64,000 bases of DNA from an uncultured cyanobacterium (GCA_963744145.1 CAVUSO010000001.1:5728001-5792000), one strand, 5' to 3'. Numbered from the stretch's first letter, positions 11,001 through 36,452 are shown. Notes: generated by a model from the sequence alone, not told the origin. Translations and numbers: made by a program.

Positions 11001-11358
11001 TTCCCTTTTCTCGCAGTAATTTGGGTTTTGAACTATATGATTCTTCAGCACGAGTGCGACCGTAAGCTCCACGAACATAGCTTTTCTCATCCCGTTCTTT
11101 TTTGCCAGTCATAGTGGAAGCTTGATTATAATTTCGGCTTCTATTCGGAACCAATAACGTTAGTAATCCATCCACCAGTGTCGATTTTCCTGAGCCATTT
11201 GCCCCAGTCAACAAGGAAATATTTCCCTGCAAATCCAGCACCCAGGGGCGTTGGTCAAAGGTTCCCCAGTTAAGCACTTCAAACCGTTGGAGGCGAAAGC
11301 CCCCCAGCGCATTATCATGGGAACCACCCATTTGTTCAATCGGTAGAACGAATTGCAT
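7999..11358 (-). CDS. jetC: Wadjet JetC, SMC-like ATPase
   Basis: NWGTF, Walker A GANGSGKST, long coiled coils, KSGGQ signature, Walker B VVIDEAF. Confidence 0.9.
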   Translation of the reverse strand: MQFVLPIEQMGGSHDNALGGFRLQRFEVLNWGTFDQRPWVLDLQGNISLLTGANGSGKSTLVDGLLTLLVPNRSRNYNQASTMTGKKERDEKSYVRGAYGRTRAEESYSSKPKLLREKGKFSVLLAYFSDRVIKQDVTLAQVLWMQDGSVRKFFVVADIELTITSHFTQSNDIPNLKKQLKSLGAETFDEFVKYSQQFRKRFGLQSEKALDLFNQTVTIKEIGGLNDFVRNHMLEKMDVQTKIRELQESYENLNISHTAIQKARKQLEALLPLTEEAEKHTNLKNTVADFQQYKNAAPAFFARKRLDLLTQELQKIEQYLTEKQHEIAERENRILELREQEKQLYSAIKQDSVGQRLQELTREIEQRQKEVNGKQRQAKDYDRLTQLLKLTHYNDSTTFFANITQGEKLKDEIDTALQTLEEQKDQQIPRHSDLTKQAATFKDELTSLRNRRSQIPKADLDIRDRIVRHLNLDETKLPFIGELLQIREEAQEWEGAIERLLRSFGLRILVPKEHYQAVNKYVNQTYFKGRRLVYYHVTTSTPNPTQRALESNRVPSKLEIKKDNGIFSHWLRDRLVHDFNYVCCDSEEQLQHESRAITSNGLIKHGGDRHEKDDRSAIDDRSKYILGWNNASKIKALEDQLSQVNQQLAQIDNEVKLLKGQINQQYEKRSWLQDLMKFTDFSEIDWRSVELDRLKLQEQKQQLEASSDHLKQLEAQLKSTQEEIAQADQRRIALIRESQTLKDRQSKAQTEQKHCEIKLQSVRDSDIYEFANRMAPKLRRYKMTIETIDQDEKDLSEYIQQQLRQIERELNESRSALTMRMLNFKKDFPETTVELGTAIEFLDEYLKLKTQIEHDDLPSHEKRFKQLMNEKVIMAISMFKSALEKKQEEIQEGIDELNEALQKINYTDSTYIKLCYENTRHHEIKDFKQDIIACLGDVARYSAEDNEVRFKNIQTRLIERFKTDERWTLNVTDVRKWLEFSVSERYRSDNTEKEYHTDSSGKSGGQKVKLAYTILASAIAYQFGLTQDNVKSRSFRFVVIDEAFSKSDDHNARYAMELFKNLNLQLLVVTPKDKIHVVSNYISSVHLVYNNPEGSYSQIVSTDIEEIKKSPNMLITNYD

Positions 11359-11902
11359 GAGTTGCTAACTTTTGTTTTAGGAGTTCGAGGGTATCAGCAT
11401 CAATTTTGGCTTTGAGAATGGGACGTACTTCGTAATTTTCATCCTGTCCAGACAAACGTTTGAGAAAACCTAATTCCTCTGTCTGCTTCACCAGTTTATC
11501 CACCTCGCGCCGAAATCTTTCCTCATTATTCCCTTCCGGTAGATAAGATTCTAACAAATCTCGAATTTTTTCAATACTAAGAATCAATCGCCCTGTAATA
11601 TCGCTAGAATCGAACTGTCGCAGTTGCTCACGCAGCAATACACATAAAACAGTAACGTTAAAGCTTAACTTACGCCGAACAGTTAGCTGGGGCAGATGTT
11701 CACCATCTTCTGCATCAGAGTCGGGCTGTTCCAGATAGGCAAATCCTTCTGTTTCGTAATTTTGGACTTGCAGACCAATTTTGCCAAAATATTCCTTAAT
11801 TTGGGTTAAATCGCTTTGCAATCGACTCCAATGGGGATCATCATAATAAATAGCTCCCCGTAAGAGTTTGAGAATGACAGGTGCATAGGGCTGAGGTTGC
11901 AT
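11336..11902 (-). CDS. jetB: Wadjet JetB (DUF4194-type)
   Basis: 188 aa between jetA and jetC; EGFAYL, VLCVLLRE, YEVRPILKA. Confidence 0.85.
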   Translation of the reverse strand: MQPQPYAPVILKLLRGAIYYDDPHWSRLQSDLTQIKEYFGKIGLQVQNYETEGFAYLEQPDSDAEDGEHLPQLTVRRKLSFNVTVLCVLLREQLRQFDSSDITGRLILSIEKIRDLLESYLPEGNNEERFRREVDKLVKQTEELGFLKRLSGQDENYEVRPILKAKIDADTLELLKQKLATHAIRSTD

Positions 11903-11911
11903 GATTGACAG

Positions 11912-13366
11912 TCAGCGGTGAAAGATTACTTGTGGTAAAGTCAGCCGGAACTGTTTTTCTGGTTCTAGGCTGGTAATTATGATTGATTCAATTATACTGT
12001 TATTAATAGTATGGCGATCGCCTTGAGTAGCGATCGCTAAATAGGCAACAATTTCTGGCAATCCCTGGGTGACTGGATAAAGTTGGAGCAATTCCGTTAG
12101 CAATACTTCTGCTTGCTGTTCCAGGGTTCGTTCAATCCGTTGTACTAATTCATCTTCATCCACATAAAATTGTTGATAAAGCGCAGCAATTTCCTCCTGA
12201 TCTAGTGTAATTTCTGGTAAGTTACTAAAATCCATTGAGAATTTTGGTGTATCTGACTCATCCAGTTCATGCAAAGGACGTGCCATGGGCAGATTTACAT
12301 TTGGTTCACATTCCAATATCCAAAAGTCTGGCTCTGGTGGTGCATGATCCACAACTTCTAATGCAAGACGTTGTACTTCAGCAATCAGTTCAGCCACAAG
12401 TCGATTTTCCCTAATATTGCGTTCATCCAACATCTGACGTAGTTTTTCCGCTAGTTGATGATTGGATTGCACGATATATTCTCCTGCATCAATCAAACTG
12501 CGCTCAATCCGGCGCAATAACCCATTCTCTTTAGTTAATGGCTGCAATTCTTCTAAACCATAAATCGTTTGAATCAGAGACTTTAGCTCCTGACGCTTAT
12601 TGGTTGACATCAGGAAATTCCAGAACCCATAAAAACTGCGTCCCTGATCGGAATTTTTCAATTCCTCATCTGCATCTAGCACCCGGTTAATTACTGCACC
12701 CTTGCGAGTATCTGGCTGAAGTTGGACTTCTTGTACAGTACGAGTTAGCTTACGAAAGTTTTGCTCAACTTCTCGAAAATCTGCAATCAACTGACGGGTC
12801 ACTTGATTTGCTAGCAGAAAACGCTCTTGGAGTTGGGTCTTGTTGAAGCGATCGACCATCCCTGTCTGACGAATTTGGTCAATTTCCTGCTGAATCTGAT
12901 CGCGATCCTCCTCCAACTGAGCAATCCGGGTCTCTACATCCGTTGTGCTGCGATCGCGAATCTCCTTCAACAGTGAAAAAATCTGCAAAAAACGCGATTC
13001 CGTACCCACAAACTCTTCCCGGTGCTTTAGATCTTCTATCCAAGCGATCGCTTTCTCCGTCGCTGGAGTTAGGGTAAATACTGGCTCATCACTACTATCA
13101 AATGTTTTCCTCAAAAACTGATCATCACACCATTCATTCAGATAATCTTTAGGCGATCGAGGATAAATATCAGGATAAATATCTTGTAGAGACTCCAGAG
13201 CATCACCCAGTTTTGTTTCTAACTCTATTTGAGCAATGGAAACACGACACGGAGTTACCTTAAACTGTTTATACAAAAAACTCAAAATCAAAGCAGCATT
13301 TCGACTTCGTAAAAGCTTTAGTATGGTAGAGCTTTCTAATTCATCCTTGATTTGTTCATATTCCAT
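11912..13366 (-). CDS. jetA: Wadjet JetA (DUF3375-type)
   Basis: FVGTESRF, DFREVEQNFR, SDQGRSF..FW.FL, GLPEIVAY. Confidence 0.87.
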   Translation of the reverse strand: MEYEQIKDELESSTILKLLRSRNAALILSFLYKQFKVTPCRVSIAQIELETKLGDALESLQDIYPDIYPRSPKDYLNEWCDDQFLRKTFDSSDEPVFTLTPATEKAIAWIEDLKHREEFVGTESRFLQIFSLLKEIRDRSTTDVETRIAQLEEDRDQIQQEIDQIRQTGMVDRFNKTQLQERFLLANQVTRQLIADFREVEQNFRKLTRTVQEVQLQPDTRKGAVINRVLDADEELKNSDQGRSFYGFWNFLMSTNKRQELKSLIQTIYGLEELQPLTKENGLLRRIERSLIDAGEYIVQSNHQLAEKLRQMLDERNIRENRLVAELIAEVQRLALEVVDHAPPEPDFWILECEPNVNLPMARPLHELDESDTPKFSMDFSNLPEITLDQEEIAALYQQFYVDEDELVQRIERTLEQQAEVLLTELLQLYPVTQGLPEIVAYLAIATQGDRHTINNSIIESIIITSLEPEKQFRLTLPQVIFHR

Positions 13367-14349: not shown

Positions 14350-15366
14350 TTAACAAGTAGGGCTCTTCGGGGAGTACGAACCTAAAAATTTCTCTCCATC
14401 AAAGTGAATCAGGTGATCGGGTGTGTCAGCAATCCAAACCTCTGTCTCCCAAGCAATATTAGGTAAAAACTGACGAAAAGTATTCCGGTCAAGAAAAGCT
14501 GTTATAAAAATTATATCAGCTTGGCACTGTTCTGTTAATTTTTTCAATTCTAAAAGACGGACAGGAGAAATTGCTCCCGAACTATGAACTGCCTCAATGA
14601 GATAAATCCAATTTTTTTGAAGCGAATAAGCGACTATATCAGGTAGTTCACCATGAGATAGTTCAAAAAAATTTAGAGCCTTCAGACGTTCCTTTTCTAA
14701 ATGAAGAAATTTGTTGGCAGTATCTCCTACATATAAAACTTCTGCTCCATATCCATAACGAGGTAAAAATTGCTCAATAATTGCTTTTTGTAGTTCGTTA
14801 TGTTTTCCAGGACTAAATTCTAATATCTTACCAGAAGAAAAAATTACTGGAATTAAGTTTATCTCTCGATGGCTAGACATCCGTTTCTCTAAAGTTATTT
14901 TATTAGCTAAACAATTGTCAACTATAGTTGCCCATTTCTCAGAGCCAAAATTTTTAATGAAAGGAATATATTCAGCATTTAACGCAAAGGATCTAGTACC
15001 ATCATTTCTAGCAGCATTGGGATTAGCTGCGCTAGGAAGAATGATTTCAGCTAAGACAATCAATTTTAAATCTTTTCTGCGTATATCATCATAAGAGCTT
15101 TCTGAAATTTTTTCATAAAAATGAGTATTCCAATATCTAATTATGTCTCGTGTTCGCAAAGCATGAAAATCATCAATATTCTGCCAATCGCCACTCTTCT
15201 TGATATTAGCAACTGCTAGAAAAGCCATAGCCATTCTTTCCTGACGACGAGAGCTAATCCCATCAACAGGTATACCAAATTTAGCCAGAATACAAAGAGC
15301 TTCGTTAAATAGTTTAATTAATGCTTCTGGTTTATTTGAATTAGTAATATATTGTATTATTTCCAT
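14350..15366 (-). CDS. Type II restriction endonuclease, BsuBI/PstI family
   Basis: SPGKHNELQKAIIEQF, LYVGDT, HGELPD, LIEAVHSSG, IAWETEVW, PDHLIHFDG. Confidence 0.88.
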   Translation of the reverse strand: MEIIQYITNSNKPEALIKLFNEALCILAKFGIPVDGISSRRQERMAMAFLAVANIKKSGDWQNIDDFHALRTRDIIRYWNTHFYEKISESSYDDIRRKDLKLIVLAEIILPSAANPNAARNDGTRSFALNAEYIPFIKNFGSEKWATIVDNCLANKITLEKRMSSHREINLIPVIFSSGKILEFSPGKHNELQKAIIEQFLPRYGYGAEVLYVGDTANKFLHLEKERLKALNFFELSHGELPDIVAYSLQKNWIYLIEAVHSSGAISPVRLLELKKLTEQCQADIIFITAFLDRNTFRQFLPNIAWETEVWIADTPDHLIHFDGEKFLGSYSPKSPTC

Positions 15367-15374
15367 GACTTCAT

Positions 15375-16421
15375 TTAAAGGGGTAATGATAGCTGAATGG
15401 GCAGATTACGCATTTTTATTTCTTTTAAAGAAAATCTTTGATGAGATTCTAAGTAAGTCCGCACACTAGCGGCAAGATGAAAAGCAAATAAAGGCGAAAC
15501 CGCGTTACCTATTTGATTAAAACAACTTGTTTCTGTTCCCACAAACTCAAACCAATCTGGAAAACTTTGTAATCTTGCTGCTTCCCTTAAAAGTAACCTA
15601 CGCCGTCGTCCATCTGCAAGTTTAATTCGGTGCATATCTCCCGTAGCTGCGGAAATATTCCGACAAGTTAAAGTTCTTGCAGGTAAATATAGATGAAGAT
15701 CGCGGGGACGCTTGCAAAAAGATGCTTTTTCATATTTAGCTATGTATTCATCCATGCTAGCTGTGAGAAACTTAGATTCGGGGGGCACTTGCAACGCTAG
15801 TTCCCCTAAAGCTTCCCCAGCACTAATTTTTTTTGTTCGTATTTTGGGAAAAGTAAAATTACCTCGATGTCCTACTACAATGACTCGTTCGCGATTTTGA
15901 GGAACTCCAAAATCAACAGCATTAAGTAGCTGAAATTCAACAATATAACCTAAAGATTGCAACAATTGACTAATTTCTTCAAAATACCATTTATTTTTAT
16001 AAAGTAAACCTCGAACATTTTCAAAGAGCCAAATCTCAGGCTGAATTTTCCCAATAGCATTAATAAATATAGGAAATCCATCTCTTGTATCTTTTAATCC
16101 TTTTTGTTTTCCTCCGACGCTAAAAGGTTGGCAGGGCGGTCCACCAATTAATATGGCAGCAGAGGGCAGATTAGTATCTATAGTTAAAAAAGCTTGGGTA
16201 CATTCACCTGTTAAATTTTTGCGATAGGTTGCACAGCAATCAGCATCCATTTCAAAACCATGCGTTTGAAAACCTTGGGCTTCAAAACCAAGAGACAATC
16301 CACCGCATCCAGCAAATAAGTCAACTACTAGGGGATGTTGAGAAATAGCTGGTTTGAGTAGATGGTCGATCTTGTCGATGTAATTCATAATTAGGTAAAG
16401 TGTAAATGATAACTCATGCAA
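15375..16421 (-). CDS. DNA (cytosine-5) methyltransferase
   Basis: DLFAGCGG, GGPPCQPFS, ENV, QNRER, RLQSFP, QIGNAV; start may be the downstream ATG (MNYIDK). Confidence 0.93.
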   Translation of the reverse strand: MHELSFTLYLIMNYIDKIDHLLKPAISQHPLVVDLFAGCGGLSLGFEAQGFQTHGFEMDADCCATYRKNLTGECTQAFLTIDTNLPSAAILIGGPPCQPFSVGGKQKGLKDTRDGFPIFINAIGKIQPEIWLFENVRGLLYKNKWYFEEISQLLQSLGYIVEFQLLNAVDFGVPQNRERVIVVGHRGNFTFPKIRTKKISAGEALGELALQVPPESKFLTASMDEYIAKYEKASFCKRPRDLHLYLPARTLTCRNISAATGDMHRIKLADGRRRRLLLREAARLQSFPDWFEFVGTETSCFNQIGNAVSPLFAFHLAASVRTYLESHQRFSLKEIKMRNLPIQLSLPL

Positions 16422-26420: not shown

Positions 26421-28334
26421 ATGATAGGTGATGGGATCAAAGCATGGATAGCCAGATCTAAGCATAGATCAGCAGTAACCGGGATGCTGACCGGAGCATG
26501 GATTATCGCTCAAGGAATATTACCTTTAGCTCCAGCGATCGCTGATCCACCTCGGACGGGGATGAGTTATAGTGAGTTATTGCAAAAAATTGATGCTGGT
26601 AAAGTTGCGAAAATTGAGATTGACCCAGCAACCAGAATCGCGAGAGTACAGTTAGAAGGTCAAAAGAAAAGTGAACCTTTAAAAGAGGTGACACTGTTTG
26701 AACAATACTCCGAGCTATTACAAAAAATTCGCGAAAAAAATCGCAATGGAGAAGAAATTCAAGTTGATGTGCGACCATCTGCTGATAACAGTGTAGCAGT
26801 TCAGTATTTGGCTAATTTTCTGCTGATCTTACTGGTAATTGGTGCATTGATGATGATTTTACGTCGCTCAACTAATGCTTCTAATCAAGCAATGAATTTT
26901 GGTAAATCCCGAGCGAGATTCCAGATGGAAGCAAAAACTGGGGTCATGTTTGATGATGTCGCTGGAATTGAAGAAGCAAAAGAAGAGCTTCAAGAAGTAG
27001 TTTCCTTCTTGAAAAAACCCGAAAAATTTACAGCGATCGGTGCAAAAATTCCCAAGGGAGTCTTGTTAGTGGGTCCACCAGGAACCGGAAAAACCCTCTT
27101 AGCAAAAGCGATCGCAGGGGAAGCAGGTGTACCTTTTTTTAGTATCTCCGGTTCAGAATTTGTCGAAATGTTTGTGGGAGTGGGAGCTTCACGAGTTCGG
27201 GATTTGTTCAAAAAAGCTAAAGAAAACTCACCCTGTATTATTTTTATTGATGAAATTGATGCTGTGGGTCGTCAACGGGGTGCTGGAATTGGTGGTGGTA
27301 ATGATGAACGAGAACAAACTCTCAACCAGTTACTCACCGAAATGGATGGATTTGAAGGGAATGTCGGAATTATCATTATTGCAGCAACCAACCGTCCCGA
27401 TGTATTGGATACAGCTCTATTACGTCCAGGAAGATTTGACCGACAGGTAATGGTAGATTTACCAGGGTATAAAGGGAGACTGGGAATTTTACAAGTTCAT
27501 GCTCGGAATAAAAAATTAGCTGAAGATGTATCAATTGAAGCGATCGCTCGAAGAACTCCTGGATTTTCCGGTGCTGATTTAGCTAATTTGCTAAATGAAG
27601 CAGCAATTTTAACTGCTCGTCGTCGTAAAGATGCAATTACTCCTTTGGAAATTGACGATGCAATCGATCGGGTGACTATTGGTTTAACTTTGACACCCTT
27701 ATTGGATAGTAAGAAAAAGCGATTAATTGCTTATCACGAAGTTGGTCATGCTTTGTTAATGACTTTGTTGAAAAACTCTGATCCCTTAAATAAAGTAACA
27801 ATTATTCCTCGTTCCGGAGGTGTGGGTGGTTTTGCTCAACAAATCTTTAATGAAGAAATGGTTGATAGTGGACTGTATAGTCGCGCTTGGATTTTAGACC
27901 AAATTACCATTTTATTAGGGGGAAGAGCCGCAGAAACTGTAGTATTTGGGGAAGCAGAAGTAACAGCAGGAGCAAGTAGTGATATTAAAGGAGTAGCGAC
28001 TTTAGCACGGGAAATGGTAACTCGTTATGGAATGTCTGATTTAGGACCAGTTGCTTTAGAAGGATCGGGTCAGGAAGTATTTCTAGGTAAAGACTGGATG
28101 GCTCGTTCCGAGTATTCTGAAGAAGTAGCTACTAAAATTGATCAAGAAGTACGAGCGATCGCTTTTCGTTGTTATGAACAAGCTTGTCAGTTAGTTCGGG
28201 AGAATCGCGTGCTGTTAGATACATTAGTCGATCTATTATTAGAACAGGAAACCATTGAGGGAGATCAATTTCGGAAAATTGCAGCAGAATATGTAGAACT
28301 ACCGGAAAAGCAACTTAATTCTTTATTCAGTTAA
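26421..28334 (+). CDS. ftsH: ATP-dependent zinc metalloprotease FtsH
   Basis: [26 protein letters not shown]. Confidence 0.97.
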
Positions 28335-29145
28335 CCGTAGGGGCGAAGCATTCGGGCGACAATGGAACAATCAAACCAGTAAAATCATATCCGAATGCTT
28401 CGCCCAGCTGCACCGATATCCCCAAAATACTCTTAATTCTTAATTCAGTCAACCGTAGGGGCGAAGCATTCGGGCGACAATGGAACAATCAAACCAGTAA
28501 AATCATATCCGAATGCTTCGCCCTGCTGCGCCGATATCCCCAAAATACTCTTAATTCTTGATTCAATTAACCGTAGGGGCGAAGCATTCGGGCGACAATG
28601 GAACAATCAAACCAGTAAAATCATATCCGAATGCTTCGCCCAGCTGCACCGATATCCCCAAAATACTCTTAATTCTTAATTCAGTCAACCGTAGGGGCGA
28701 AGCATTCGGGCGACAATGGAACAATCAAACCAGTAAAATCATATCCGAATACTTCGCCCAGCTGCACCGATATCCCCAAAATACTCTTAATTCTTGATTC
28801 AATTAACCGTAGGGGCGAAGCATTCGGGCGACAATGGAACAATCAAACCAGTAAAATCATATCCGAATGCTTCGCCCAGCTGCACCGATATCCCCAAAAT
28901 ACTCTTAATTCTTAATTCAGTCAACCGTAGGGGCGAAGCATTCGGGCGACAATGGAACAATCAAACCAGTAAAATCATATCCGAATGCTTCGCCCAGCTG
29001 CACCGATATCCCCAAAATACTCTTAATTCTTGATTCAGTCAACCGTAGGGGCGAAGCATTCGGGCGACAATTAAACAATCAAACCAATAAAATCATATCC
29101 GAATGCTTCGCCCAGCTTCGCCGATATCCCCAAAATATTCTTAAC
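28333..29145 (+). repeat. Tandem array of 7 x 118-bp units, each with a GTAG-REP-type hairpin
   Basis: Units start at 28333, 28451, 28569, 28687, 28805, 28923, 29041; arms GGGCGAAGCATTCGG/CCGAATGCTTCGCCC around a near-constant 35-nt loop. Confidence 0.95.
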
Positions 29146-29794: not shown

Positions 29795-30121
29795 TGCTTC
29801 GTTTCCTTAATTAAAGGTGATAATGCTGGAGTTTTTACCCTTTCAAGTGGACTGGTGTAATTACAAGTTGACTTTAGCATTGTCAGGATTTTCCAGTTTA
29901 AGATTCTCCCAGAATGCTGACCTAATTTTGGTCACTTTTTGGGACGAAAATACTTAGTCTAGGTTTCTCCCCATCTAATATCATGCTGGGATGGATATTA
30001 TCAGCAAAGTTATGTAACTGTAAACTTTGATTAGCTATAGTTGGGTCTAAACGATAAACTAAGCTGATTGGTTGCTCTAGTTGGGCTCGGAATAGCCCTA
30101 ATTGTGGATAATAGGATAGAT

Positions 30122-30508
30122 ATGAGGATGATGGTGGAAGTTTTACCATTTCAATTTGGCTTCGATGCGATTATGATCGCTAGTGTGGGGTTATGGTCTT
30201 TAGCTTTATATTTAGGTTTTTCACCGATCGGAGAGTGGATTACTGAAAAAATAATTCGTTGGTTTAATTTTGCGGAGCGATCGTTTTATTTTTCAGTGGA
30301 AGAATTTGAAAAAACTCGGGTAGCTCGAGAAAATCAAAATGCTTTTTATGCTTCGTTGTTTAGTATTGTGCCTTTTTTAGTGGTGGGATGGTTATGTAAT
30401 TATGGTGTAAATATTAGTTTAGGTCGCAGTTGGGCAATTAGTTTAGGAATCTTGTTTTGTATGACTGGTGCTGTCTATGAATTAGCTCGTCGTCACAGTC
30501 AATCCTAG
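30122..30508 (+). CDS. Conserved membrane hypothetical protein
   Basis: Three hydrophobic segments; ATG starts at 30122-30131 more likely than TTG at 30068. Confidence 0.7.
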   Translation: MRMMVEVLPFQFGFDAIMIASVGLWSLALYLGFSPIGEWITEKIIRWFNFAERSFYFSVEEFEKTRVARENQNAFYASLFSIVPFLVVGWLCNYGVNISLGRSWAISLGILFCMTGAVYELARRHSQS

Positions 30509-30528
30509 GATATTGAGTAGTAAATTTT

Positions 30529-31290
30529 ATGGAATTTCCAGTTTATATTTGGTGTGGTTCTTGGAAAATTCATCCTCATCTTTTCTTTGAAGGTTTAGCT
30601 TATGCGATCGCATTTGGTCTAGGGATATTTAAGAAACGGAAAGATCCAATTGCTCCCCACGATCGCACTTCGGTGATCACAGGAGCAATGGTAGGTGCTT
30701 TACTTGGTAGCAAGATTTTGGTAGTCTTACAGCATCTTAATTTAGCTGGAGAAAATTGGCAAGATTTGATTTGGCTGTTCTTCCAAGGAAAAACCGTCGT
30801 TGGTGCTTTAATTGGTGGGTTAATTGGGGTGGAAATCACCAAAAAGATGATTGGAGTGAAACGTTCGACAGGAGATGTGTTTGTCGAACCTTTGATTGTG
30901 GGGATTGCGATCGGAAGAATTGGTTGTTTTTTGACTGGTTTAAGCGATCGCACCTACGGAATTGCGACTAATTTACCTTGGGGTGTGGATTTTGGTGATG
31001 GAATTTCCCGACATCCAACTCAAATTTATGAGATTATGTTTTTGTTGAGTTTATTGATATTCTTACGCATTCGGAGTCACGATCAGCGTCAAGAAGGAGA
31101 TTTATTTAAGTTTTATATGATTGCTTATTTAGGGTTTCGGTTCCTGATTGATTTCATTAAACCTGATTTTCACCTATTGGTCGGACTAAGTGCCATTCAA
31201 ATTGCTTGTTTGCTGACTCTATTATATTACCGTAAAACTATCCCTCGACTAATAGCTTTTGGGTCTAAACGAGTCGAATTTCGCTCTTAA
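30529..31290 (+). CDS. Prolipoprotein diacylglyceryl transferase (Lgt) family paralogue
   Basis: GRIGCFLTG, YG..T.LPWG, RHPTQIYE, RFLIDF; GKTVVGALIGG replaces the usual SFHGG motif. Confidence 0.85.
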   Translation: MEFPVYIWCGSWKIHPHLFFEGLAYAIAFGLGIFKKRKDPIAPHDRTSVITGAMVGALLGSKILVVLQHLNLAGENWQDLIWLFFQGKTVVGALIGGLIGVEITKKMIGVKRSTGDVFVEPLIVGIAIGRIGCFLTGLSDRTYGIATNLPWGVDFGDGISRHPTQIYEIMFLLSLLIFLRIRSHDQRQEGDLFKFYMIAYLGFRFLIDFIKPDFHLLVGLSAIQIACLLTLLYYRKTIPRLIAFGSKRVEFRS

Positions 31291-31318
31291 GCTTTCATCC
31301 CAATTTTGAGGAGAATTT

Positions 31319-32734
31319 ATGTCCACTAGACCCTATTTATTTTATGCTTTGACTAATAGTGTTTGTGCTGAATGTTTAGTCAAAGTCGAAGCAAAAATAA
31401 CTTTCCAAAATGATCGGGTCTATTTAGTCAAACATTGTCCTACCCATGGACATCAGGAAGTCCTCATTGCTGATGATATTGAATACTATAAACAATCCCT
31501 GGGATTTATTAAACCTGGGGATATGCCCTTAAAATTTAATACACCAATTAAATATGGTTGTCCCTATGATTGTGGACTCTGTCCAGATCATGAACAACAT
31601 AGCTGTTTAACCTTAGTCGAATTAACCGACCGCTGTAATCTATCTTGTCCAATTTGCTATGCTGACTCTGGGGTAGAAGAAATATTTTCCCAAAACAATG
31701 AACCCCGTCGTCATCGGAGTTTAGCACAAATTGAAATGATGTTAGATGCGATCATCAGAAATGAAGGGGAACCCCAAGTTGTCCAACTGAGTGGGGGAGA
31801 ACCAACTATTCATCCAGAGTTTTTTGAAATTTTAGCTTTAGCCAAAAGTAAGCCCATTAAGCATATCATGATTAATACCAATGGGGTAAGAATTGCTAAG
31901 GATCGGAATTTTTGCGATCGCTTAAGCCAATTTATGCCCGGAATTGAGGTATACTTACAATTTGATAGCTTTGAAGCAGCAGCACTTCAGGAATTAAGAG
32001 GAGCAGATTTACGAGAAATTCGTGAACAAGCGATCGCTAATTTGAATGAGTTTAAAATTTCGACTACTCTAGTCGTCACCTTGAAAAAAGGACTAAACGA
32101 TCAAGAAATTGGTAAAATCATTGAATATGCACTCCAGCAAAGCTCGGTTCGGGGAGTAACATTTCAACCAATCCAAGCAGTGGGAAGACTAGAGGGATTT
32201 AATCCTCAACAAGACCGATATACTTTCACCGAGGTTCGACGTGCTATTTTAGCACAAAGCAACTATTTTCAACCAGAAGATTTAATTCCAGTCCCCTGTC
32301 ATCCCGATTCACTGACGATGGCTTATGCTCTCAAATTAAATGGTAAAATCATTCCCCTTACTGGTTTAATTAATCCCGATACATTTGTCAAAATTATGCC
32401 TAATAGCATTTTATATGAACAAGATCAGGAATTAAAACAAAAAATATTTGAATTATTTTCCACCAGTCATTCTCCCCAATCGTCCGCAATTTCATTAAAA
32501 CAGTTATTATGTTGTTTACCGATGTTACCAGTCCCGGAGGGGATTACCTATGAAAATATCTTTAGGGTGATGATTGTCCAATTTATGGACTCCTATAATT
32601 TTGATGTCCGCTCCGTTAAACGTTCCTGTATACACATTGTTCATCCAGATGGTAGAATTATCCCGTTCGACACCTTCAATATGTTTTATCGTTCTGGTAG
32701 TATAGGACATCACTTAGTTACCAATCGACCCTAA
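31319..32734 (+). CDS. Radical SAM enzyme, Tes/GDGT-MAS (MJ0619)-like architecture
   Basis: N-terminal CxxC...CxxHG, CPYDCGLC auxiliary motif, CNLSCPIC RS motif, GGEPT, YLQFD, FMDSYNFDV..V.RSCIH...DGRIIPF. Confidence 0.88.
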   Translation: MSTRPYLFYALTNSVCAECLVKVEAKITFQNDRVYLVKHCPTHGHQEVLIADDIEYYKQSLGFIKPGDMPLKFNTPIKYGCPYDCGLCPDHEQHSCLTLVELTDRCNLSCPICYADSGVEEIFSQNNEPRRHRSLAQIEMMLDAIIRNEGEPQVVQLSGGEPTIHPEFFEILALAKSKPIKHIMINTNGVRIAKDRNFCDRLSQFMPGIEVYLQFDSFEAAALQELRGADLREIREQAIANLNEFKISTTLVVTLKKGLNDQEIGKIIEYALQQSSVRGVTFQPIQAVGRLEGFNPQQDRYTFTEVRRAILAQSNYFQPEDLIPVPCHPDSLTMAYALKLNGKIIPLTGLINPDTFVKIMPNSILYEQDQELKQKIFELFSTSHSPQSSAISLKQLLCCLPMLPVPEGITYENIFRVMIVQFMDSYNFDVRSVKRSCIHIVHPDGRIIPFDTFNMFYRSGSIGHHLVTNRP

Positions 32735-32781
32735 TTTCACCATTAATTAAAAACTGAGATTGTCCCCTAGGGAAATATTAA

Positions 32782-32962
32782 GTTTTGTAAATCATAGATT
32801 TATGTTACCAATTTGAGTTGAAGAGTGTTAGAATCTAAAAGTAGAGAGTAAAATCGGGGACACTGTTTTGGTTTTAATATTGATAGGCTCTTTCCTGTTG
32901 GTATGGACAAGCTTTTCTCCGAAATCTCAACTGCTACATCAATTAGGTTTGGAAAATAAACT
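32782..32962 (+). promoter_or_regulatory. rbp-type promoter/5' UTR, copy 1
   Basis: Homologous to 33270-33450; TCTCCGAA box at 32916. Confidence 0.65.
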
Positions 32963-33268
32963 ATGTCTATTTACGTTGGCAATCTTTCCTACGACGTTGA
33001 AGAGAAAGATTTGAAGGAAGTGTTTAGCGAATATGGCGATGTGAAAAACGTTCAGCTACCAACAGATCGGGAAACTGGTCGGATGCGGGGATTTGGTTTT
33101 GTGGAAATGGTAACAGAAGCTGACGAACAGAAAGCGATCGAAGCTTTAGATGGAGCTGAGTGGATGGGTCGTAATCTAAAAGTTAACAAAGCTAAACCGA
33201 AAACCGATGGCGGTGGGGGCGGCAGGCGGGACGGCGGCGGCGGTGGATATTCCCGGGGAAGGTATTAA
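32963..33268 (+). CDS. rbp: RRM RNA-binding protein with Gly-rich tail (Rbp family)
   Basis: IYVGNL (RNP2), RGFGFV (RNP1). Confidence 0.93.
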   Translation: MSIYVGNLSYDVEEKDLKEVFSEYGDVKNVQLPTDRETGRMRGFGFVEMVTEADEQKAIEALDGAEWMGRNLKVNKAKPKTDGGGGGRRDGGGGGYSRGRY

Positions 33269-33269
33269 A

Positions 33270-33450
33270 TTTTGTAACAGTTATAGATCTCTGTCACCCA
33301 TTTGGGTTGAAGAGTGTTAAGATACGAGAGTACAGAGTAAATTCGGTTGCAGTGTTTGTTTTTAGTATTGATAGGCTCTTTCCTTTTGGTATTGGCAGGC
33401 TTCTCTCCGAAATCTCAACTTCTACATCAATTAGGTTTTGGAGATAAACT
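33270..33450 (+). promoter_or_regulatory. rbp-type promoter/5' UTR, copy 2
   Basis: TTCGGT, TTTGTTTTTAGT, TCTCCGAA (33404) and TTTGGAGA RBS boxes. Confidence 0.7.
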
Positions 33451-33753
33451 ATGTCTATCTACGTTGGTAATCTTTCCTACGAAGTTAACCAGCAAGATCT
33501 GGAAGCTGTATTTGCCGAATACGGTGCAGTGAAACGAGTTCAGCTACCCACCGATCGGGAAACTGGTCGTTTACGGGGATTTGGTTTTGTGGAAATGGGC
33601 ACAGATGCTGAAGAAACGGCTGCGATCGAAGCTTTAGACGGAGCCGAATGGATGGGTCGTGATCTAAAAGTTAACAAAGCCAAACCCCGGGAAAATCGCA
33701 ATTCTTCTTTTGGTGGTGGTAATCGTGGTGGTAACTCTCGTAATCGCTACTAA
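33451..33753 (+). CDS. rbp: RRM RNA-binding protein (Rbp family)
   Basis: IYVGNL, RGFGFV; tandem paralogue of 32963..33268. Confidence 0.93.
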   Translation: MSIYVGNLSYEVNQQDLEAVFAEYGAVKRVQLPTDRETGRLRGFGFVEMGTDAEETAAIEALDGAEWMGRDLKVNKAKPRENRNSSFGGGNRGGNSRNRY

Positions 33754-33827
33754 TCTTTAACGTTAGATCCTCAAAATTATCAATCGTTAAGTTTATAATA
33801 AGTTGAAAATTACTTATTATAATATAT

Positions 33828-33858
33828 GAGGCTCAGACATGAATGTTTGAGCCTTTAT
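33828..33858 (+). terminator. Probable terminator hairpin after the rbp pair
   Basis: AGGCTCAGACA-tgaa-TGTTTGAGCCT followed by TT. Confidence 0.5.
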
Positions 33859-33872
33859 TGATTGAGGAAACT

Positions 33873-34205
33873 ATGAGGAACAATTCAGATTTAAAAGGAG
33901 TATTGCTCGGATTTTTTCTATTAATCGGACTTAATATTATTGCTGGATATGTTTTATTTGCATTAATTTTTTTAATATCAGCAGTTAGTGAGAGTATCCA
34001 TAGTCCATTATTAAATTTTCTTATTTCTGATTATCGTTATCTAGTTTTACTAGCAGTTCCAGGTTTAACCCAGCTAATATATGTAATTCCCCTAGTTTTA
34101 TGGCTGAAAAAGCGAGAAAGATGGGGTTTAATGAAAGGAGTAATTATTGGTGCAGTGATCACAGCGTTATTAAATGGAGGTTGTTGGTTATTTTTGATTA
34201 GATAG
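33873..34205 (+). CDS. Small three-TM membrane protein ending in LLNGGCW
   Basis: GAGGA RBS before ATG 33873; three hydrophobic helices; single Cys near the C-terminus. Confidence 0.7.
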   Translation: MRNNSDLKGVLLGFFLLIGLNIIAGYVLFALIFLISAVSESIHSPLLNFLISDYRYLVLLAVPGLTQLIYVIPLVLWLKKRERWGLMKGVIIGAVITALLNGGCWLFLIR

Positions 34206-34319
34206 ATGGTGCCGATCTAGATTTTGATCTATAATAGAGCAAATCTTAGTCCAATTGTGCGGGTAATATATGTACCGTTCAAATTAAAATTTAGACACAA
34301 AGTAAATTGGAGAGGGGCT

Positions 34320-34895
34320 ATGTCTAAACGCAAAAAACACGATCTGCGGTGGATTAAAGAAACTCTAGAGCTAAAAGAAGACCATAATTGGAAATCCGCA
34401 CCAAATACCCGGATTTTTGTCGCGGGAAGAGGAGCATTGCGATTTGATATTCCGGAAAATTGGCATTTTGAACCAGAACCCAAGTCATTTAAGTTTTTAG
34501 ACAAAAAACCACCCGATGATGATTGTCGTTTAGAAGCTTCTTATAATCTATTACCCCCTGCTGATTGGAGTGATTTTCCCCTGACATCACTATTAAAAAA
34601 AGTCGTTGAAGAAGATGAGCGCAATCCGATCGAAATCGGTGAAGTGATTAAGCTCAATCGACAAACTGCTCGTGTGGTGTGGACTCAATTAAAATTTATT
34701 GATCCCCAAGAAAACCGTCCTGCTTATTCCCGGATTTGTATTGGGTTAGGTTCGGGAGTACAATGTTTGATTACTTTTGACTATTGGGTCGATGATGCGG
34801 AAAAGTTGACCCCGGTTTGGGATCTGGTGATGAATTCCTTGGTACTAGGTTTGTATATTCGCGATCCTCGCACCGGATTTGCTTTACCAGACTAA
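34320..34895 (+). CDS. Conserved hypothetical protein
   Basis: GGAGAGGGG RBS before ATG (MSKRKK). Confidence 0.7.
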   Translation: MSKRKKHDLRWIKETLELKEDHNWKSAPNTRIFVAGRGALRFDIPENWHFEPEPKSFKFLDKKPPDDDCRLEASYNLLPPADWSDFPLTSLLKKVVEEDERNPIEIGEVIKLNRQTARVVWTQLKFIDPQENRPAYSRICIGLGSGVQCLITFDYWVDDAEKLTPVWDLVMNSLVLGLYIRDPRTGFALPD

Positions 34896-34942
34896 AATTG
34901 TGGGATGACAGTGAGCGAGCGAGCGCGTTTACCCAATCAATT

Positions 34943-35914
34943 TTAAAACGTACTGTGATCCGCTTTCTTAGCAGGTTCAATGATCGAGCGAATCCCTTCA
35001 AAGGTAGCTGGGATATTACGAGGGTCCATAAACATCACCTTACTACTCTCGCTTCCACCAATCTTTAGCCCCATTTCCAGATAATTTTGTGCTAAGAGAA
35101 ACTGGAGTGCTTCTTTAGCATGAGGATCATCTTTGAGAGTGTTCTTAATAATTTCGATCGCTTGTGCTGATGCTTGTGCTTTCAAAATTTGTTGCTGACG
35201 TTCTGCTTCCGCTTTTAAGATAATCGCTTGTTGTTGTGCTTCAGCTTCTAAAATCTGGGCTTTTTTTTGGGATTCAGCTTGCAATACCTGTGCTTCTGCT
35301 TTACCTCTAGCACTATTAATTGCTGCTTCTCTTTCACCTTCAGAAGCTAAAATTGCTGCCCGTTTTTTTCGCTCCGAAGACATTTGCAATTCCATCGACT
35401 CCTGGACTGCTTGGGAAGGAATAATATCTCGAAGTTCAACCCTGGTTACCTTTACTCCCCAAGGTTCAGTAGACTCGTCTAAATCTTGGAGTAAAAGATC
35501 ATTAATCTTCGCACGAGCTGTAAAGGTTTCATCTAATTCCAAATTTCCTAACTCTGATCTGATTTGAGTCCGGACTAAATTCTCCATCGCTAACTGAAGA
35601 TTTTGGACTTTATAGTAAGCTCTTTCCATATCCATAATCCGCCAATAAACGATCGCATCAGCAGTAATGGAAACATTGTCACGGGTAATACATTGTTGGG
35701 GTGGAATATCTAACACTTTTTCCCGAATCGTTTCTCGGAAAACTACTTGATCTACAAACGGAACAATAAAGTGCGGACCGGGTGTGAGTTTTTTGCTAAA
35801 ACTACCTAATCTTTCCACTAATGCTTCATTACCTTGATTAATCGTTTTATAAGTGCTTAAAAGGATACTTCCTCCAAAGCCGATCGTAATTAGGAATCCA
35901 ATTAATTCGCCCAT
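34943..35914 (-). CDS. SPFH/band 7 (stomatin-like) protein
   Basis: [31 protein letters not shown]. Confidence 0.92.
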
Positions 35915-35942
35915 TTGATTAACATCCGATTTTTAACAATTA

Positions 35943-36452
35943 TTAAGAATGGAGAATATATTCAGGCATGACAATCAGTGTAGTACCTTCTCGTCTAATC
36001 ACCAAAACTTTTTGCCCAGGAGCGATCGCGATCGTCTGATCTTCACAACGAGCTTTCCAGGAATTTCCTTGATAACGCACACGACCAGCAACTCCGATCG
36101 GGATTTCCGTCAAAGTTTCTGCTTCCTGAGCATCCTCCAGAATATGAGCTTTGTGCTTGGGTGCAAAACGACGTGATAGAAAAATACCACCTCCTGAAAA
36201 TGCCATCCACAATATTACTTGCCAACCTAAAGGTAAAGGTATCGGTAACAATAAGGTCAGACCGGCTAGAATCAAAGCACTTACTCCCATCACCAACTCA
36301 ATAAACGCTGATGGGAGAATAAACTCTAGTCCACATAGAATCACCCCTAGGAGTAACCAGATGGTAGTTAAATTTGTCAGGGAAGAATGGGGGAGAGGGG
36401 TTTGCGCTAAGAACAATTTTGTTATATCATCATACCACATATCAACCTCCAA
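35943..36452 (-). CDS. NfeD family protein
   Basis: TM helices then GRVRYQGNSWKA...REGTTLIV; adjacent to SPFH gene. Confidence 0.85.
   Translation of the reverse strand: MEVDMWYDDITKLFLAQTPLPHSSLTNLTTIWLLLGVILCGLEFILPSAFIELVMGVSALILAGLTLLLPIPLPLGWQVILWMAFSGGGIFLSRRFAPKHKAHILEDAQEAETLTEIPIGVAGRVRYQGNSWKARCEDQTIAIAPGQKVLVIRREGTTLIVMPEYILHS

Follow-up and report, generated by a model that had tools for sequence, protein, structure and literature searches.

The window (the whole 64,000-nt stretch of DNA that was analysed, from an uncultured cyanobacterium) appears to encode a conserved three-component membrane module, consisting of an Lgt paralogue, a radical SAM (rSAM) enzyme and a small membrane protein. 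The genes and sites are as follows:

30529..31290, + strand: Lgt paralogue, a divergent Lgt-family 7-TM membrane enzyme (253 aa)
30913..30960, + strand: equivalent of the Lgt signature motif, G129-R130-I-G-C133-F-L-T-G-L-S-D-R-T-Y-G144 (profile alignment to 5AZB)
31319..32734, + strand: rSAM gene, predicted GDGT-MAS/Tes fold, Lgt-linked clade (471 aa)
31364..31447, + strand: rubredoxin-type site of the rSAM, C16, C19, C40 and H43 (7TOL alignment)
31559..31657, + strand: N-terminal auxiliary-cluster motif of the rSAM, C81xxxC85xxC88 with H91/H94, invariant C96, and the radical SAM motif C106xxxC110xxC113 (7TOL alignment)
32582..32668, + strand: C-terminal motif of the rSAM, FMDSYNFD...RSCIH...DGRIIPFD, with an altered Cys pattern (clade alignment)
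32963..33268 and 33451..33753: two RRM (rbp) genes
33843..34205, + strand: small 3-TM membrane protein, candidate lipidation substrate (120 aa)
34107..34184, + strand: last helix of the small protein, with the basic loop KKRERWGLMK, an uncharged stretch and LLNGGC114 (read from sequence)

ORF translation of the window bears out the layout given in the first-pass annotation. The lgt-like and rSAM genes are co-oriented with an intergenic gap of 28 bp, and the small ORF, described there as lying about 1.1 kb downstream beyond two rbp genes, starts 1108 bp past the rSAM stop. The quoted ending of the small protein, ITALLNGGC-W, is also present (C-terminus ...ITALLNGGCWLFLIR; ORF listing ...VITALLNGGCWLFLIR). 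The two rbp genes stand between the rSAM and small genes in the window, an interruption seen at none of three other cyanobacterial loci. No further LGT domain was found in the window among the 40 ORFs of at least 150 aa and the 8 ORFs around the module that were scanned.

The Lgt paralogue belongs to Pfam LGT (PF01790; 96.8 bits, cut-off 24.9) and scores below the NCBIfam equivalogs TIGR00544 (51 vs. 118.9) and NF000778, the best Lgt model (77.9 vs. 334). The sole significant PDB fold match of its structure model (pLDDT 92.9) is E. coli Lgt 5AZB (E 4.4e-7, TM 0.56/0.51). In the profile alignment to 5AZB, R143, R239, Y235 and E202 of E. coli Lgt correspond to R130, R204, Y200 and E168, and the RHP motif of Lgt is retained as R161-H162-P163. 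Among 52 Lgt-paralogue sequences from several phyla, no exception occurs at R130, R204, Y200, G129, G132, C133, G137, T142 or G144, and E168 is nearly invariant. These scores and the alignment agree with the earlier description of an Lgt paralogue, here a divergent one unlike a housekeeping-type Lgt. The HGG His reported as missing is indeed replaced: E. coli H103 aligns with a hydrophobic residue, V91 in 'KTVVGALIGG' of the window. E. coli N146 aligns with the invariant C133, E151 is also not conserved, and the paralogue has a new invariant H17. The roles of the Lgt residues are taken from PMC4728403, where H103 is described as essential in E. coli Lgt, with H103A/N/Q/R/Y all inactive (PMC4728403).

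Since H103 is absent and N146 and E151 are not conserved, transferase activity may have been lost or changed. The phosphatidylglycerol-binding and catalytic arginines at the outer face of the membrane are kept, so the paralogue is probably still a transferase that, judging by homology, moves diacylglyceryl or a related lipid group. The replacement of H103 by V and of N146 by an invariant Cys, together with the new His17, points to a remodelled acceptor site, which would fit a non-canonical acceptor.

The rSAM carries the Pfam domains Zn_ribbon_HMPTM and Radical_SAM. All the rSAM motifs quoted earlier are found in its translation, i.e. C16xxC19...C40xxH43G, C81PYDCGLC88, C106xxxC110xxC113 and the C-terminal F422MDSYNFD...R435SCIH...D444GRIIPF450. 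It matches PDB 7TOL (GDGT-MAS) with a phmmer E-value of 3.3e-64. Foldseek aligns its structure model (pLDDT 84.8) to 7TOL with TM 0.81/0.77 and 28% identity, whereas other rSAM enzymes among the matches listed reach TM 0.39 at most. The model thus indicates that the rSAM has the whole GDGT-MAS fold. Features of Tes that it displays are the rubredoxin CX2C...CX2H, the [4Fe-4S]N CX3CX2C plus His, the radical SAM CX3CX2C and the four-domain fold; the rubredoxin-type CX2C...CX2H motif has been described in GDGT-MAS (PMC9433317). Across 67 sequences of the clade, C16, C19, C40 and H43 are invariant, as are the auxiliary-cluster columns (C81/C85/C88, H91/H94), C96 and C106/C110/C113.

TrsS (NF045646) is the best-scoring curated NCBIfam family (323.8 bits, cut-off 490), followed here by Tes (NF045702) with 284.8 bits against an equivalog cut-off of 450. 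Relatives of the rSAM in other phyla score 263.8 to 296.5 bits on the Tes model, and none of the 89 representatives scanned reaches its cut-off. In a tree made up only of TrsS and unnamed relatives, the Lgt-linked rSAM enzymes form a separate clade (support 1.0) and the 12 representatives above the TrsS cut-off form another (support 0.999). The Tes-like character proposed in the first-pass annotation therefore holds for the fold and not for membership of the Tes equivalog.

The C-terminal domain sets the clade apart. The difference from MJ0619 given in the first-pass annotation was accurate, as the phmmer alignment to 7TOL pairs 'RCCIHY...IIPFC' of GDGT-MAS with 'RSCIHI...IIPFD' of the window. 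The signature of the Lgt-linked clade is [ST]436-C437-x-H439 and PF[DE]451; Cys occupies both aligned positions 436 and 451 in GDGT-MAS, in all 12 TrsS representatives and in many other representatives. Equivalents of GDGT-MAS C455 and C470 are thus missing from the clade, and C327, C398 and C399 are kept across it. GDGT-MAS Met439 is V420 in the window, with Met retained in at least 41 of the 67 clade members, and Tyr459 is I440 in the window and I/F/L across the clade. Both residues are described as completely conserved in 1000 archaeal homologues and as dispensable in vitro in GDGT-MAS (PMC9433317). With two Cys missing and Tyr459 replaced, Tes-type C-C coupling cannot be assumed for this rSAM.

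A gene-neighbourhood survey, as the first-pass annotation had suggested, covered 80 related loci from at least seven phyla with rSAM identities of 52 to 81%. The rSAM-Lgt pairing proved conserved, with an Lgt paralogue on the strand of the rSAM in 77 loci. In 61 of them the Lgt-like ORF is directly adjacent (-60..+100 nt from the rSAM start); another 10 have it at a distance of up to 1.5 kb, 4 have it 1.9 to 6.9 kb upstream, and 2 show a weaker match downstream of the rSAM. It is absent from 3 of the 80 loci, 2 of them cut by contig ends. All-against-all clustering of 1149 ORFs left the Lgt-like and rSAM proteins as the only families common to more than 11 loci. Natural Lgt-like::rSAM fusions (PF01790+PF23545+PF04055) make up 33 of the 41 longer Lgt-like homologue clusters, and one of them (P0243) was verified by hmmscan. 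Comparative genomics thus shows the Lgt paralogue to function together with the Tes-fold rSAM as one unit, the two being adjacent in most genomes and fused in many. All three genes are annotated by RefSeq on plasmid NZ_CP111057.1. Hosts include Bacteroidota, Bacillota, Acidobacteriota, Planctomycetota, Proteobacteria and others, and the module is not cyanobacteria-specific.

The small protein matches no Pfam or NCBIfam family. In an alignment of 15 small-protein sequences, C114 (residue 114 of 120) is the only invariant column. A phmmer search with the window protein found the ORF directly after the rSAM in nine loci (L001-L006, L024, L026, L068) from four phyla, cyanobacteria, Bacillota, Planctomycetota and Acidobacteriota, which shows the candidate substrate to be a conserved third gene and, with the pairing and fusions, supports the proposed three-gene module. 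Depending on definition, between 59 and 64 of the 80 loci have a small hydrophobic ORF next to the pair: 59 are positive by a C-terminal Cys, and a position-free regex brings 5 more. C-terminal-Cys ORFs make up 83 of the 596 ORFs nearby and 36 of the 5278 in the rest of the loci (odds ratio 23.6, p 2e-56), and the regex gives 55 matches in the 175 kb module zone and 5 in 2.0 Mb (p 2e-54). Two to five copies occur in 20 loci. No small Cys ORF was found nearby in 16 of the 80 loci, among them 9 of the 11 from Proteobacteria and 5 of the 10 from Acidobacteriota. Comparative genomics shows the enzyme pair to be accompanied by a small membrane protein in which one Cys is invariant.

The 83 ORFs share a pattern of net charge (median +3), uncharged residues (median 16), Cys and a tail (median 7 residues), the charge and uncharged stretch being partly a product of the selection rule. 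The consensus before the Cys is I-G-[FLN]-[GSA]-[IAVT]-C. Of the lipobox-like Cys described earlier, the Cys at a helix end stands, but the canonical lipobox [LVI][ASTVI][GAS]C fits only 2 of the 83 ORFs. A complex prediction of three chains with the small protein as partner scored 0.34 against 0.10 for the best control, a weak pass. Of 157 solved complexes, 116 attain this mark, as do 2 of 215 mismatched pairs; at scores of 0.60 or below only 18 of those 157 complexes attain it, along with both of the mismatched pairs. At least 62% of contacts are common to the runs, and the partner pLDDT is at least 66.

Two features of the arrangement weigh against a lipidation reading, in addition to the 16 loci without a nearby small Cys ORF. 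The Cys of the small protein lies near the C-terminus and not behind an N-terminal signal peptide. The topology is also awkward, since the outer leaflet is where both the active site of Lgt and the Cys lie, whereas an rSAM enzyme has to be in the cytoplasm.

A chance neighbourhood of a housekeeping Lgt, an unrelated rSAM (perhaps a pterin methyltransferase) and a fortuitous small ORF would match the names of some homologues, '7,8-dihydro-6-hydroxymethylpterin dimethyltransferase' or 'prolipoprotein diacylglyceryl transferase'. It is contradicted by the pairing in 77 of 80 loci and the 33 fusion clusters, by Lgt-like scores under every Lgt equivalog cut-off and by the small-ORF enrichment (p about 1e-54), and one recently transferred island would not be expected to show identities of 52 to 81% across phyla. 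The pterin activity of MJ0619 was, moreover, not corroborated in the account of the 7TOL depositors (PMC9433317). We regard coincidence as extremely improbable.

For the module as a whole, a dedicated lipidation of the small-protein Cys, coupled to radical chemistry on lipid tails, has in our judgement about an even chance of being correct, with the chemistry inferred. As read from the sequence, the last helix seems to resemble a lipoprotein signal peptide: a basic loop is followed by some 16 uncharged residues, then by small residues and a Cys, with few residues beyond. The Cys, at the outer end of this helix, would be the acceptor. The rSAM would be placed at the C-terminus of the Lgt paralogue, on the cytoplasmic side, matching the order in fusions, and by analogy with GDGT-MAS may abstract hydrogen from a lipid tail. 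The outcome of the radical step is a matter of speculation: tails could be joined to each other by C-C coupling, giving a macrocycle or a membrane-spanning link, or be modified in some other way. Whether this step would precede or follow lipid transfer is equally speculative.

The pair could instead modify bulk lipids, as a counterpart of Tes in bacteria. The Lgt paralogue would then have ceased to transfer lipid to protein and would only bind phosphatidylglycerol (PG) and present its tails to the rSAM, with macrocyclic or membrane-spanning lipids as the product and the small protein as an accessory or regulatory subunit. The whole GDGT-MAS fold, the PG-binding arginines kept while the acceptor-side His103 is lost, and the 16 of 80 loci without a nearby small Cys ORF would agree with this, but this reading does not account for the one invariant Cys or for small ORFs in several copies. 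Membrane-spanning lipids are not known to have been reported from cyanobacteria, Flavobacteria or Paenibacillus. A role as synthases of such lipids has been proposed for Tes homologues of bacteria (PMC8941075); however, only 3 of 14 iso-diabolic-acid-producing acidobacterial genomes are described as having Tes homologues (PMC13159169). We consider a bulk-lipid role unlikely.

Less likely still is a radical S-lipidation, in which a tail radical made by the rSAM is caught by the thiol or thiolate of the small-protein Cys to give a tail-linked thioether, and the Lgt paralogue merely supplies and positions the lipid. Two C-terminal-domain Cys are replaced in the clade ([ST]436, [DE]451), and a cluster site could open for a substrate thiolate, by analogy with sactipeptide-type maturases. 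The GDGT-MAS route includes a bond between substrate carbon and cluster sulfur (PMC9433317). However, prediction puts the Cys close to the outer leaflet, distant from the cytoplasmic rSAM, and the strict conservation of R130, R204, Y200 and E168 is unneeded for a passive Lgt role.

Returning to dedicated lipidation, we found no description in print of the three-gene module, and the gene set, present in many phyla, looks like an undescribed protein-lipidation pathway. Its fuller form, a widespread pathway in which the Lgt paralogue and Tes-fold rSAM put a radical-remodelled lipid on the invariant Cys of tiny, dedicated membrane proteins, is offered tentatively, at somewhat below even chances. 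The lipid could be macrocyclised, bilayer-linked or a tail thioether, and the enzymes would often be one fused polypeptide spanning the membrane.

Lgt is viewed as the single housekeeping entry step of lipoprotein biogenesis. A conserved Lgt paralogue that has substrates of its own and is fused to a radical enzyme would give that process a second branch and, if the reading is true, a new class of lipoprotein or lipopeptide. Tes-type chemistry is known only from the bulk ether lipids of archaea; the module links the Tes fold to an enzyme of protein lipidation, and does so in aerobic and oxygenic bacteria. The findings also bear on palaeoclimate proxies, where bacterial Tes homologues serve as leads to the brGDGT synthase (PMC8941075, PMC13159169). 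The context of a large, well-supported clade of Tes homologues suggests a different job, so homology counts should be split by clade; if the reading is true, some of the 'bacterial Tes homologues' that are now tallied as possible brGDGT synthases have another function. The three-gene system is small, occurs in tractable organisms and is accessible to mass spectrometry.

Among known systems, GDGT-MAS/Tes (MJ0619, 7TOL/7TOM) shares its four-part layout with the rSAM, including the C-terminal domain. The rSAM differs in 'CC' becoming [ST]C, 'PFC' becoming PF[DE] and the extra conserved C96, C327 and C398/C399; its hosts are bacteria with ester lipids, and it is coupled to an Lgt paralogue, whereas Tes is not. 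The (seleno)protein TrsS is of the same Zn-ribbon-HMPTM superfamily, but fuses with a DVU_1556-type methyltransferase or DUF5714, while the rSAM pairs with Lgt. E. coli Lgt (5AZB) and the paralogue share the 7-TM fold at 17% identity; the paralogue is shorter (253 vs. 291 aa) and genetically coupled, often fused, to the rSAM. Like the lipobox substrates of Lgt, the small protein has a basic segment, an uncharged helix and small residues before the Cys, but in cyanobacteria, Bacillota and Bacteroidota this unit is the last helix of a polytopic protein of 55 to 120 aa. Systems of a RiPP-type precursor and an rSAM maturase, for instance the sactipeptide maturases, are similar in their small, fast-evolving, often multi-copy ORFs with one invariant target residue, adjoining an rSAM with auxiliary clusters. 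In contrast to these, the small proteins here are integral to the membrane, the rSAM is of the lipid-binding GDGT-MAS fold and not SPASM/twitch, and a lipid transferase homologue is its obligatory partner.

A gene for an Lgt paralogue and a gene for a radical SAM enzyme (rSAM) of the Tes/GDGT-MAS fold form a unit, accompanied by a gene for a small cysteine (Cys) protein. The ORF map of the window confirms the gene coordinates, gene order and gap between the first two genes given in the first-pass annotation, and all rSAM motifs quoted there were found in the rSAM translation. The genes are laid out as follows.

30529..31290, + strand: Lgt-like gene, 253 aa
31319..32734, + strand: rSAM gene, 471 aa, starting 28 bp past the Lgt-like gene
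32963..33268 and 33451..33753: two RRM-type rbp genes, both above the NCBIfam Rbp_regulator cut-off (120.8 and 117.5 bits)
33843..34205, + strand: small ORF, 120 aa, C-terminal end ...KKRERWGLMKGVIIGAVITALLNGGCWLFLIR

The rbp pair sits between the rSAM gene and the conserved third gene. Since the small gene directly follows the rSAM gene, with no rbp pair there, in the other cyanobacterial loci (n=3 among the best 80 of 554 relatives), the pair appears to have been inserted into the module. Two flanking ORFs were left out of the module because they have no counterparts in the best 80 of 554 loci: a 223-aa ORF downstream (34224..34895) and a 146-aa membrane ORF on the same strand (30068..30508), which ends 20 bp before the Lgt-like gene and has no match among Pfam or NCBIfam families. 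In its last helix, this 146-aa ORF carries a Cys whose context (…SLGILFCMTGAVYELARR) departs from the motif of the small Cys proteins. Promoter and terminator scans of 29800..35000 returned sites no more numerous than in shuffled sequence. Other features of the window are the following.

6825..13366, - strand: Wadjet/condensin-like four-gene defence set, encoding DUF3375 (JetA-like), DUF4194/MksE (JetB-like), an SbcC/RAD50-like ATPase of 1119 aa, and JetD_C accompanied by DUF3322
14350..16421, - strand: BsuBI/PstI-type endonuclease and C-5 cytosine DNA methylase, a type II restriction-modification pair neighbouring the Wadjet set
28314..29144: tandem array between ftsH and an M23 peptidase gene, 118-bp unit, 7.0 copies, 96% matches, with spurious ORFs of 53 aa and 79 aa repeated along both strands as a ladder
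34943..36452, - strand: SPFH/Band-7 and NfeD-like membrane protein pair, just downstream of the module
59913..61199 and 62406..63899, - strand: transposase-type ORFs near the window end, DDE_5/DDE_Tnp_1, and DUF4277

Conservation of the module was surveyed in the best 80 of 554 confirmed rSAM relatives, retrieved in one scan of species-representative genomes with the rSAM alignment and sharing 52 to 81% identity with the window rSAM. A same-strand match to an HMM of cyanobacterial Lgt paralogues is present in 77 of these 80 loci. The Lgt-like ORF is directly adjacent (-60..+100 nt of the rSAM start) in 61 loci, upstream within 1.5 kb in 10, 1.9 to 6.9 kb upstream in 4, and downstream with a weaker score in 2 (L007 and L011). 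Three loci lack it; contig ends truncate L003 and L025, and L074 is the only Lgt-less locus with 8 kb of upstream sequence. In L074, a 294-aa ORF directly 3' of the rSAM gene (9461..10345) encodes a canonical lipoprotein signal peptide (…LLGLSACGS…).

The two enzymes also occur as single proteins. LGT, Zn ribbon and Radical_SAM domains are joined into a single polypeptide (638 to 753 aa) in 33 of the 41 clusters of longer Lgt-paralogue homologues, a truncated form represents 1 further cluster, and one fusion was confirmed by hmmscan. The pairing, for which the first-pass annotation had proposed a neighbourhood survey, is thus conserved both in the 77 loci and in the 33 fusion clusters. The order is invariably N-terminal Lgt-like and C-terminal rSAM, which fits the inward-facing C-terminus predicted from the positive-inside pattern of the window Lgt-like protein. 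Other fusions in the superfamily join a DVU_1556-type methyltransferase with TrsS, and TrsS with DUF5714 (P0383 and P0370). A FastTree phylogeny of 144 sequences, a set without verified Tes, groups the 67 Lgt-adjacent rSAMs with 16 of 18 fusions and 3 unnamed representatives in a single clade (support 1.0). Sequences passing the TrsS cut-off (n=12) form a separate clade (support 0.999), and neither clade includes the other 44 representatives. Lgt coupling is not confined to the main clade, because the fusions P0424 and P0425 fall outside it; their rSAM parts retain the GDGT-MAS-like 'CC…C' pattern.

Clustering of ORFs of at least 70 aa at 50% coverage had suggested a two-gene module, which was overturned by phmmer and motif scans. 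With phmmer, the 120-aa window protein matches an ORF starting within ~100 nt of the rSAM stop in nine of the best 80 of 554 loci: three from cyanobacteria (L001, L002, L003), four from Bacillota (L004, L005, L006, L024), one from Planctomycetota (L026) and one from Acidobacteriota (L068). With matches after the rSAM gene in four phyla, the candidate substrate singled out in the first-pass annotation proves to be a conserved third gene. Bacteroidota loci among the best 80 of 554 encode the same kind of protein after the rSAM gene, with 55 to 110 aa, two or three helices and ends such as ...KKKKAGKVFMILAGVYCLISLGICGAMLS. A strict motif rule, positive in 49 of the best 80 of 554 loci, was rejected, as it gave false matches in L007 and L054 and one in L047, and missed real ones.

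Two further tests were applied. Test 1 called ORFs of 40 to 170 aa with a Cys among the C-terminal 25 residues, 15 uncharged residues before it and K/R immediately preceding this stretch. It was positive in 59 of the best 80 of 554 loci, calling 83 of 596 ORFs beside the pair vs 36 of 5278 in the rest of these loci (odds ratio 23.6, p 2e-56).

Table. Sampled loci (best 80 of 554; phylum assigned by hand from record titles) and loci positive in Test 1.
Group; sampled loci; positive in Test 1
Cyanobacteriota; 3; 3
Bacillota; 9; 9
Bacteroidota; 41; 41
Planctomycetota; 4; 2, one doubtful
Acidobacteriota; 10; 2
Gemmatimonadota; 1; 1, doubtful
Unclassified MAG; 1; 1
Proteobacteria; 11; 0

Positive loci of Test 1 contain one copy of the small gene in 39 cases, two in 18, three in 1 and five in 1 (best 80 of 554). 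Test 2, a position-free regular expression for [GSN]x[GSA]xC after a hydrophobic run, a pattern that does not include the LLN[GA]xC type, gave 55 matches in the 175 kb module zone vs 5 in the other 2.0 Mb (p 2e-54; best 80 of 554 loci). It adds three loci with the small gene between the Lgt-like and rSAM genes (L012, L018, L072) and two with it immediately upstream of the Lgt-like gene (L062, L063); in four of these five (L012, L062, L063, L072) the Cys lies in the first helix with at least 40 aa after it. The two tests combined cover 64 of the best 80 of 554 loci. The small gene is also upstream of the Lgt-like gene in four Bacillota loci (L008, L014, L028, L030), on the opposite strand in L028 and L030. 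The Paenibacillus proteins L008 3016..3297 and L014 6835..7092 have a different architecture, an N-terminal Cys-rich zinc-ribbon-like segment followed by a single helix (…LLATICGAY…), and the same C-terminal Cys unit.

In an alignment of 15 small proteins from four phyla, no column other than the Cys is invariant. The logo reads I-G-[FLN]-[GSA]-[IAVT]-C-[GASF], with a median of 7 residues after the Cys; the Test 1 rule partly imposes the basic segment and uncharged stretch, but not Gly(-4) or the small residue at position -2. The Cys, called lipobox-like in the first-pass annotation, is not part of a canonical lipobox, a pattern matched by only 2 of the 83 small ORFs. Neither the window protein nor 11 other small Cys proteins belong to an NCBIfam family or score above gathering for any Pfam family. 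ESM Atlas neighbours are unnamed cyanobacterial clusters, one auto-labelled 'Lipoprotein family protein'. On a Chondrinema plasmid, all three genes are consecutive in the RefSeq annotation, the third as a 64-aa 'hypothetical protein' ending ...VIGAGVCGSFF.

The Lgt-like protein scores above the Pfam LGT cut-off and below that of every NCBIfam Lgt equivalog model. Its structural model (pLDDT 92.9) has E. coli Lgt (5AZB) as sole significant PDB neighbour (E 4.4e-7, TM 0.56/0.51, 17% identity). The protein alone matches nothing in the PDB by phmmer, and residue equivalences were taken from a 52-sequence profile aligned to 5AZB. E. coli R143, R239, Y235 and E202 correspond to window R130, R204, Y200 and E168, R246 to K211, H103 to V91, and N146 to C133; the HGG His is thus missing, as noted in the first-pass annotation. 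In E. coli Lgt, R143 and R239 are described as central in catalysis and all tested H103 substitutions as inactive (PMC4728403). Residues invariant across phyla in the paralogue are H17, E102, K105, D116, R130, C133, T142, D157, R161, H162, Y167, Y200, R204 and K211. Because the equivalents of the arginines and Y235 are kept, H103 and N146 are replaced, and the paralogue has invariant residues of its own, its predicted active site is conserved yet remodelled.

The rSAM contains Zn_ribbon_HMPTM and Radical_SAM domains (Pfam). Its best curated NCBIfam families are TrsS, at 323.8 bits against a cut-off of 490, and Tes, at 284.8 bits against 450; both scores are under the cut-off, so the enzyme is an equivalog of neither. 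The only literature record of TrsS found is a table entry (PMC13188914); a 2022 selenoprotein preprint has no mention of it. The AlphaFold model (67-sequence alignment, pLDDT 84.8) superposes on GDGT-MAS along its full length (TM 0.81/0.77, 28% identity); the remaining rSAM structures match only the core (TM at most 0.39). By phmmer, the rSAM aligns with GDGT-MAS 7TOL at E 3.3e-64, and this alignment confirms the differences from MJ0619 given in the first-pass annotation, 'RCCIHY...PFC' in MJ0619 vs 'RSCIHI...PFD' in the window. C96, C327, C398 and C399 are conserved in the Lgt-linked clade. This clade has [ST]436 and [DE]451 where GDGT-MAS, TrsS and many other relatives have Cys, and, compared with GDGT-MAS, I/F/L in place of Tyr459. 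GDGT-MAS is reported to take H from a tail end, hold the radical as a C-S bond on the C-terminal cluster and couple a second tail (PMC9433317). Since the C-terminal domain is altered in the Lgt-linked clade, Tes-like coupling may occur but cannot be assumed. A Mycolicibacterium plasmid match (H3, 37.7% identity) was assigned to another subfamily, with a methyltransferase neighbour and no Lgt.

The first-pass annotation envisaged diacylglycerylation of the small protein's Cys followed by modification of the acyl tails. The Lgt paralogue would, judging from its residues, retain PG-binding and leaving-group machinery at the outer face. In the small protein, the last helix probably runs outward from a cytoplasmic basic loop, which would place the Cys at outer-leaflet level, the site of Lgt activity. 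With H103 replaced by V, N146 replaced by C and a new H17, the acceptor side of the paralogue appears to match the non-canonical Cys motif. A three-chain complex prediction with the small protein as partner scored 0.34 (best control 0.10), to be read against a mark that 116 of 157 solved complexes and 2 of 215 mismatches attain, with 18 of 157 and both mismatches at or below 0.60; this calibration holds only roughly, given the user-supplied alignments and a job of three chains. Contact agreement between runs was at least 62% and partner pLDDT at least 66. The prediction weakly suggests a complex of the two enzymes with the small protein. The main difficulty is topology, as the transferase site and the Cys would be at the outer leaflet and the rSAM is necessarily cytoplasmic. 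Tails might pass through the cavity of the paralogue, or the rSAM might act on the lipid before transfer.

Bacterial Tes homologues are already known and were proposed as membrane-spanning-lipid synthases (PMC8941075). A later study reports that they correlate poorly with membrane-spanning lipids, and instead identified Mss, which is unrelated to them (PMC13159169). No paper tying Tes homologues to Lgt or a small Cys protein was found in the openly accessible literature searched; supplements to the Tes and Mss papers may list clade members. In a term search, 'Lgt' and 'lipoprotein' do not occur in a 2026 review of lipid-modifying rSAM enzymes (PMC13459092). Compared with these systems, the module is built of known kinds of component, an Lgt paralogue and a Tes-fold rSAM, with a precursor-like candidate substrate.
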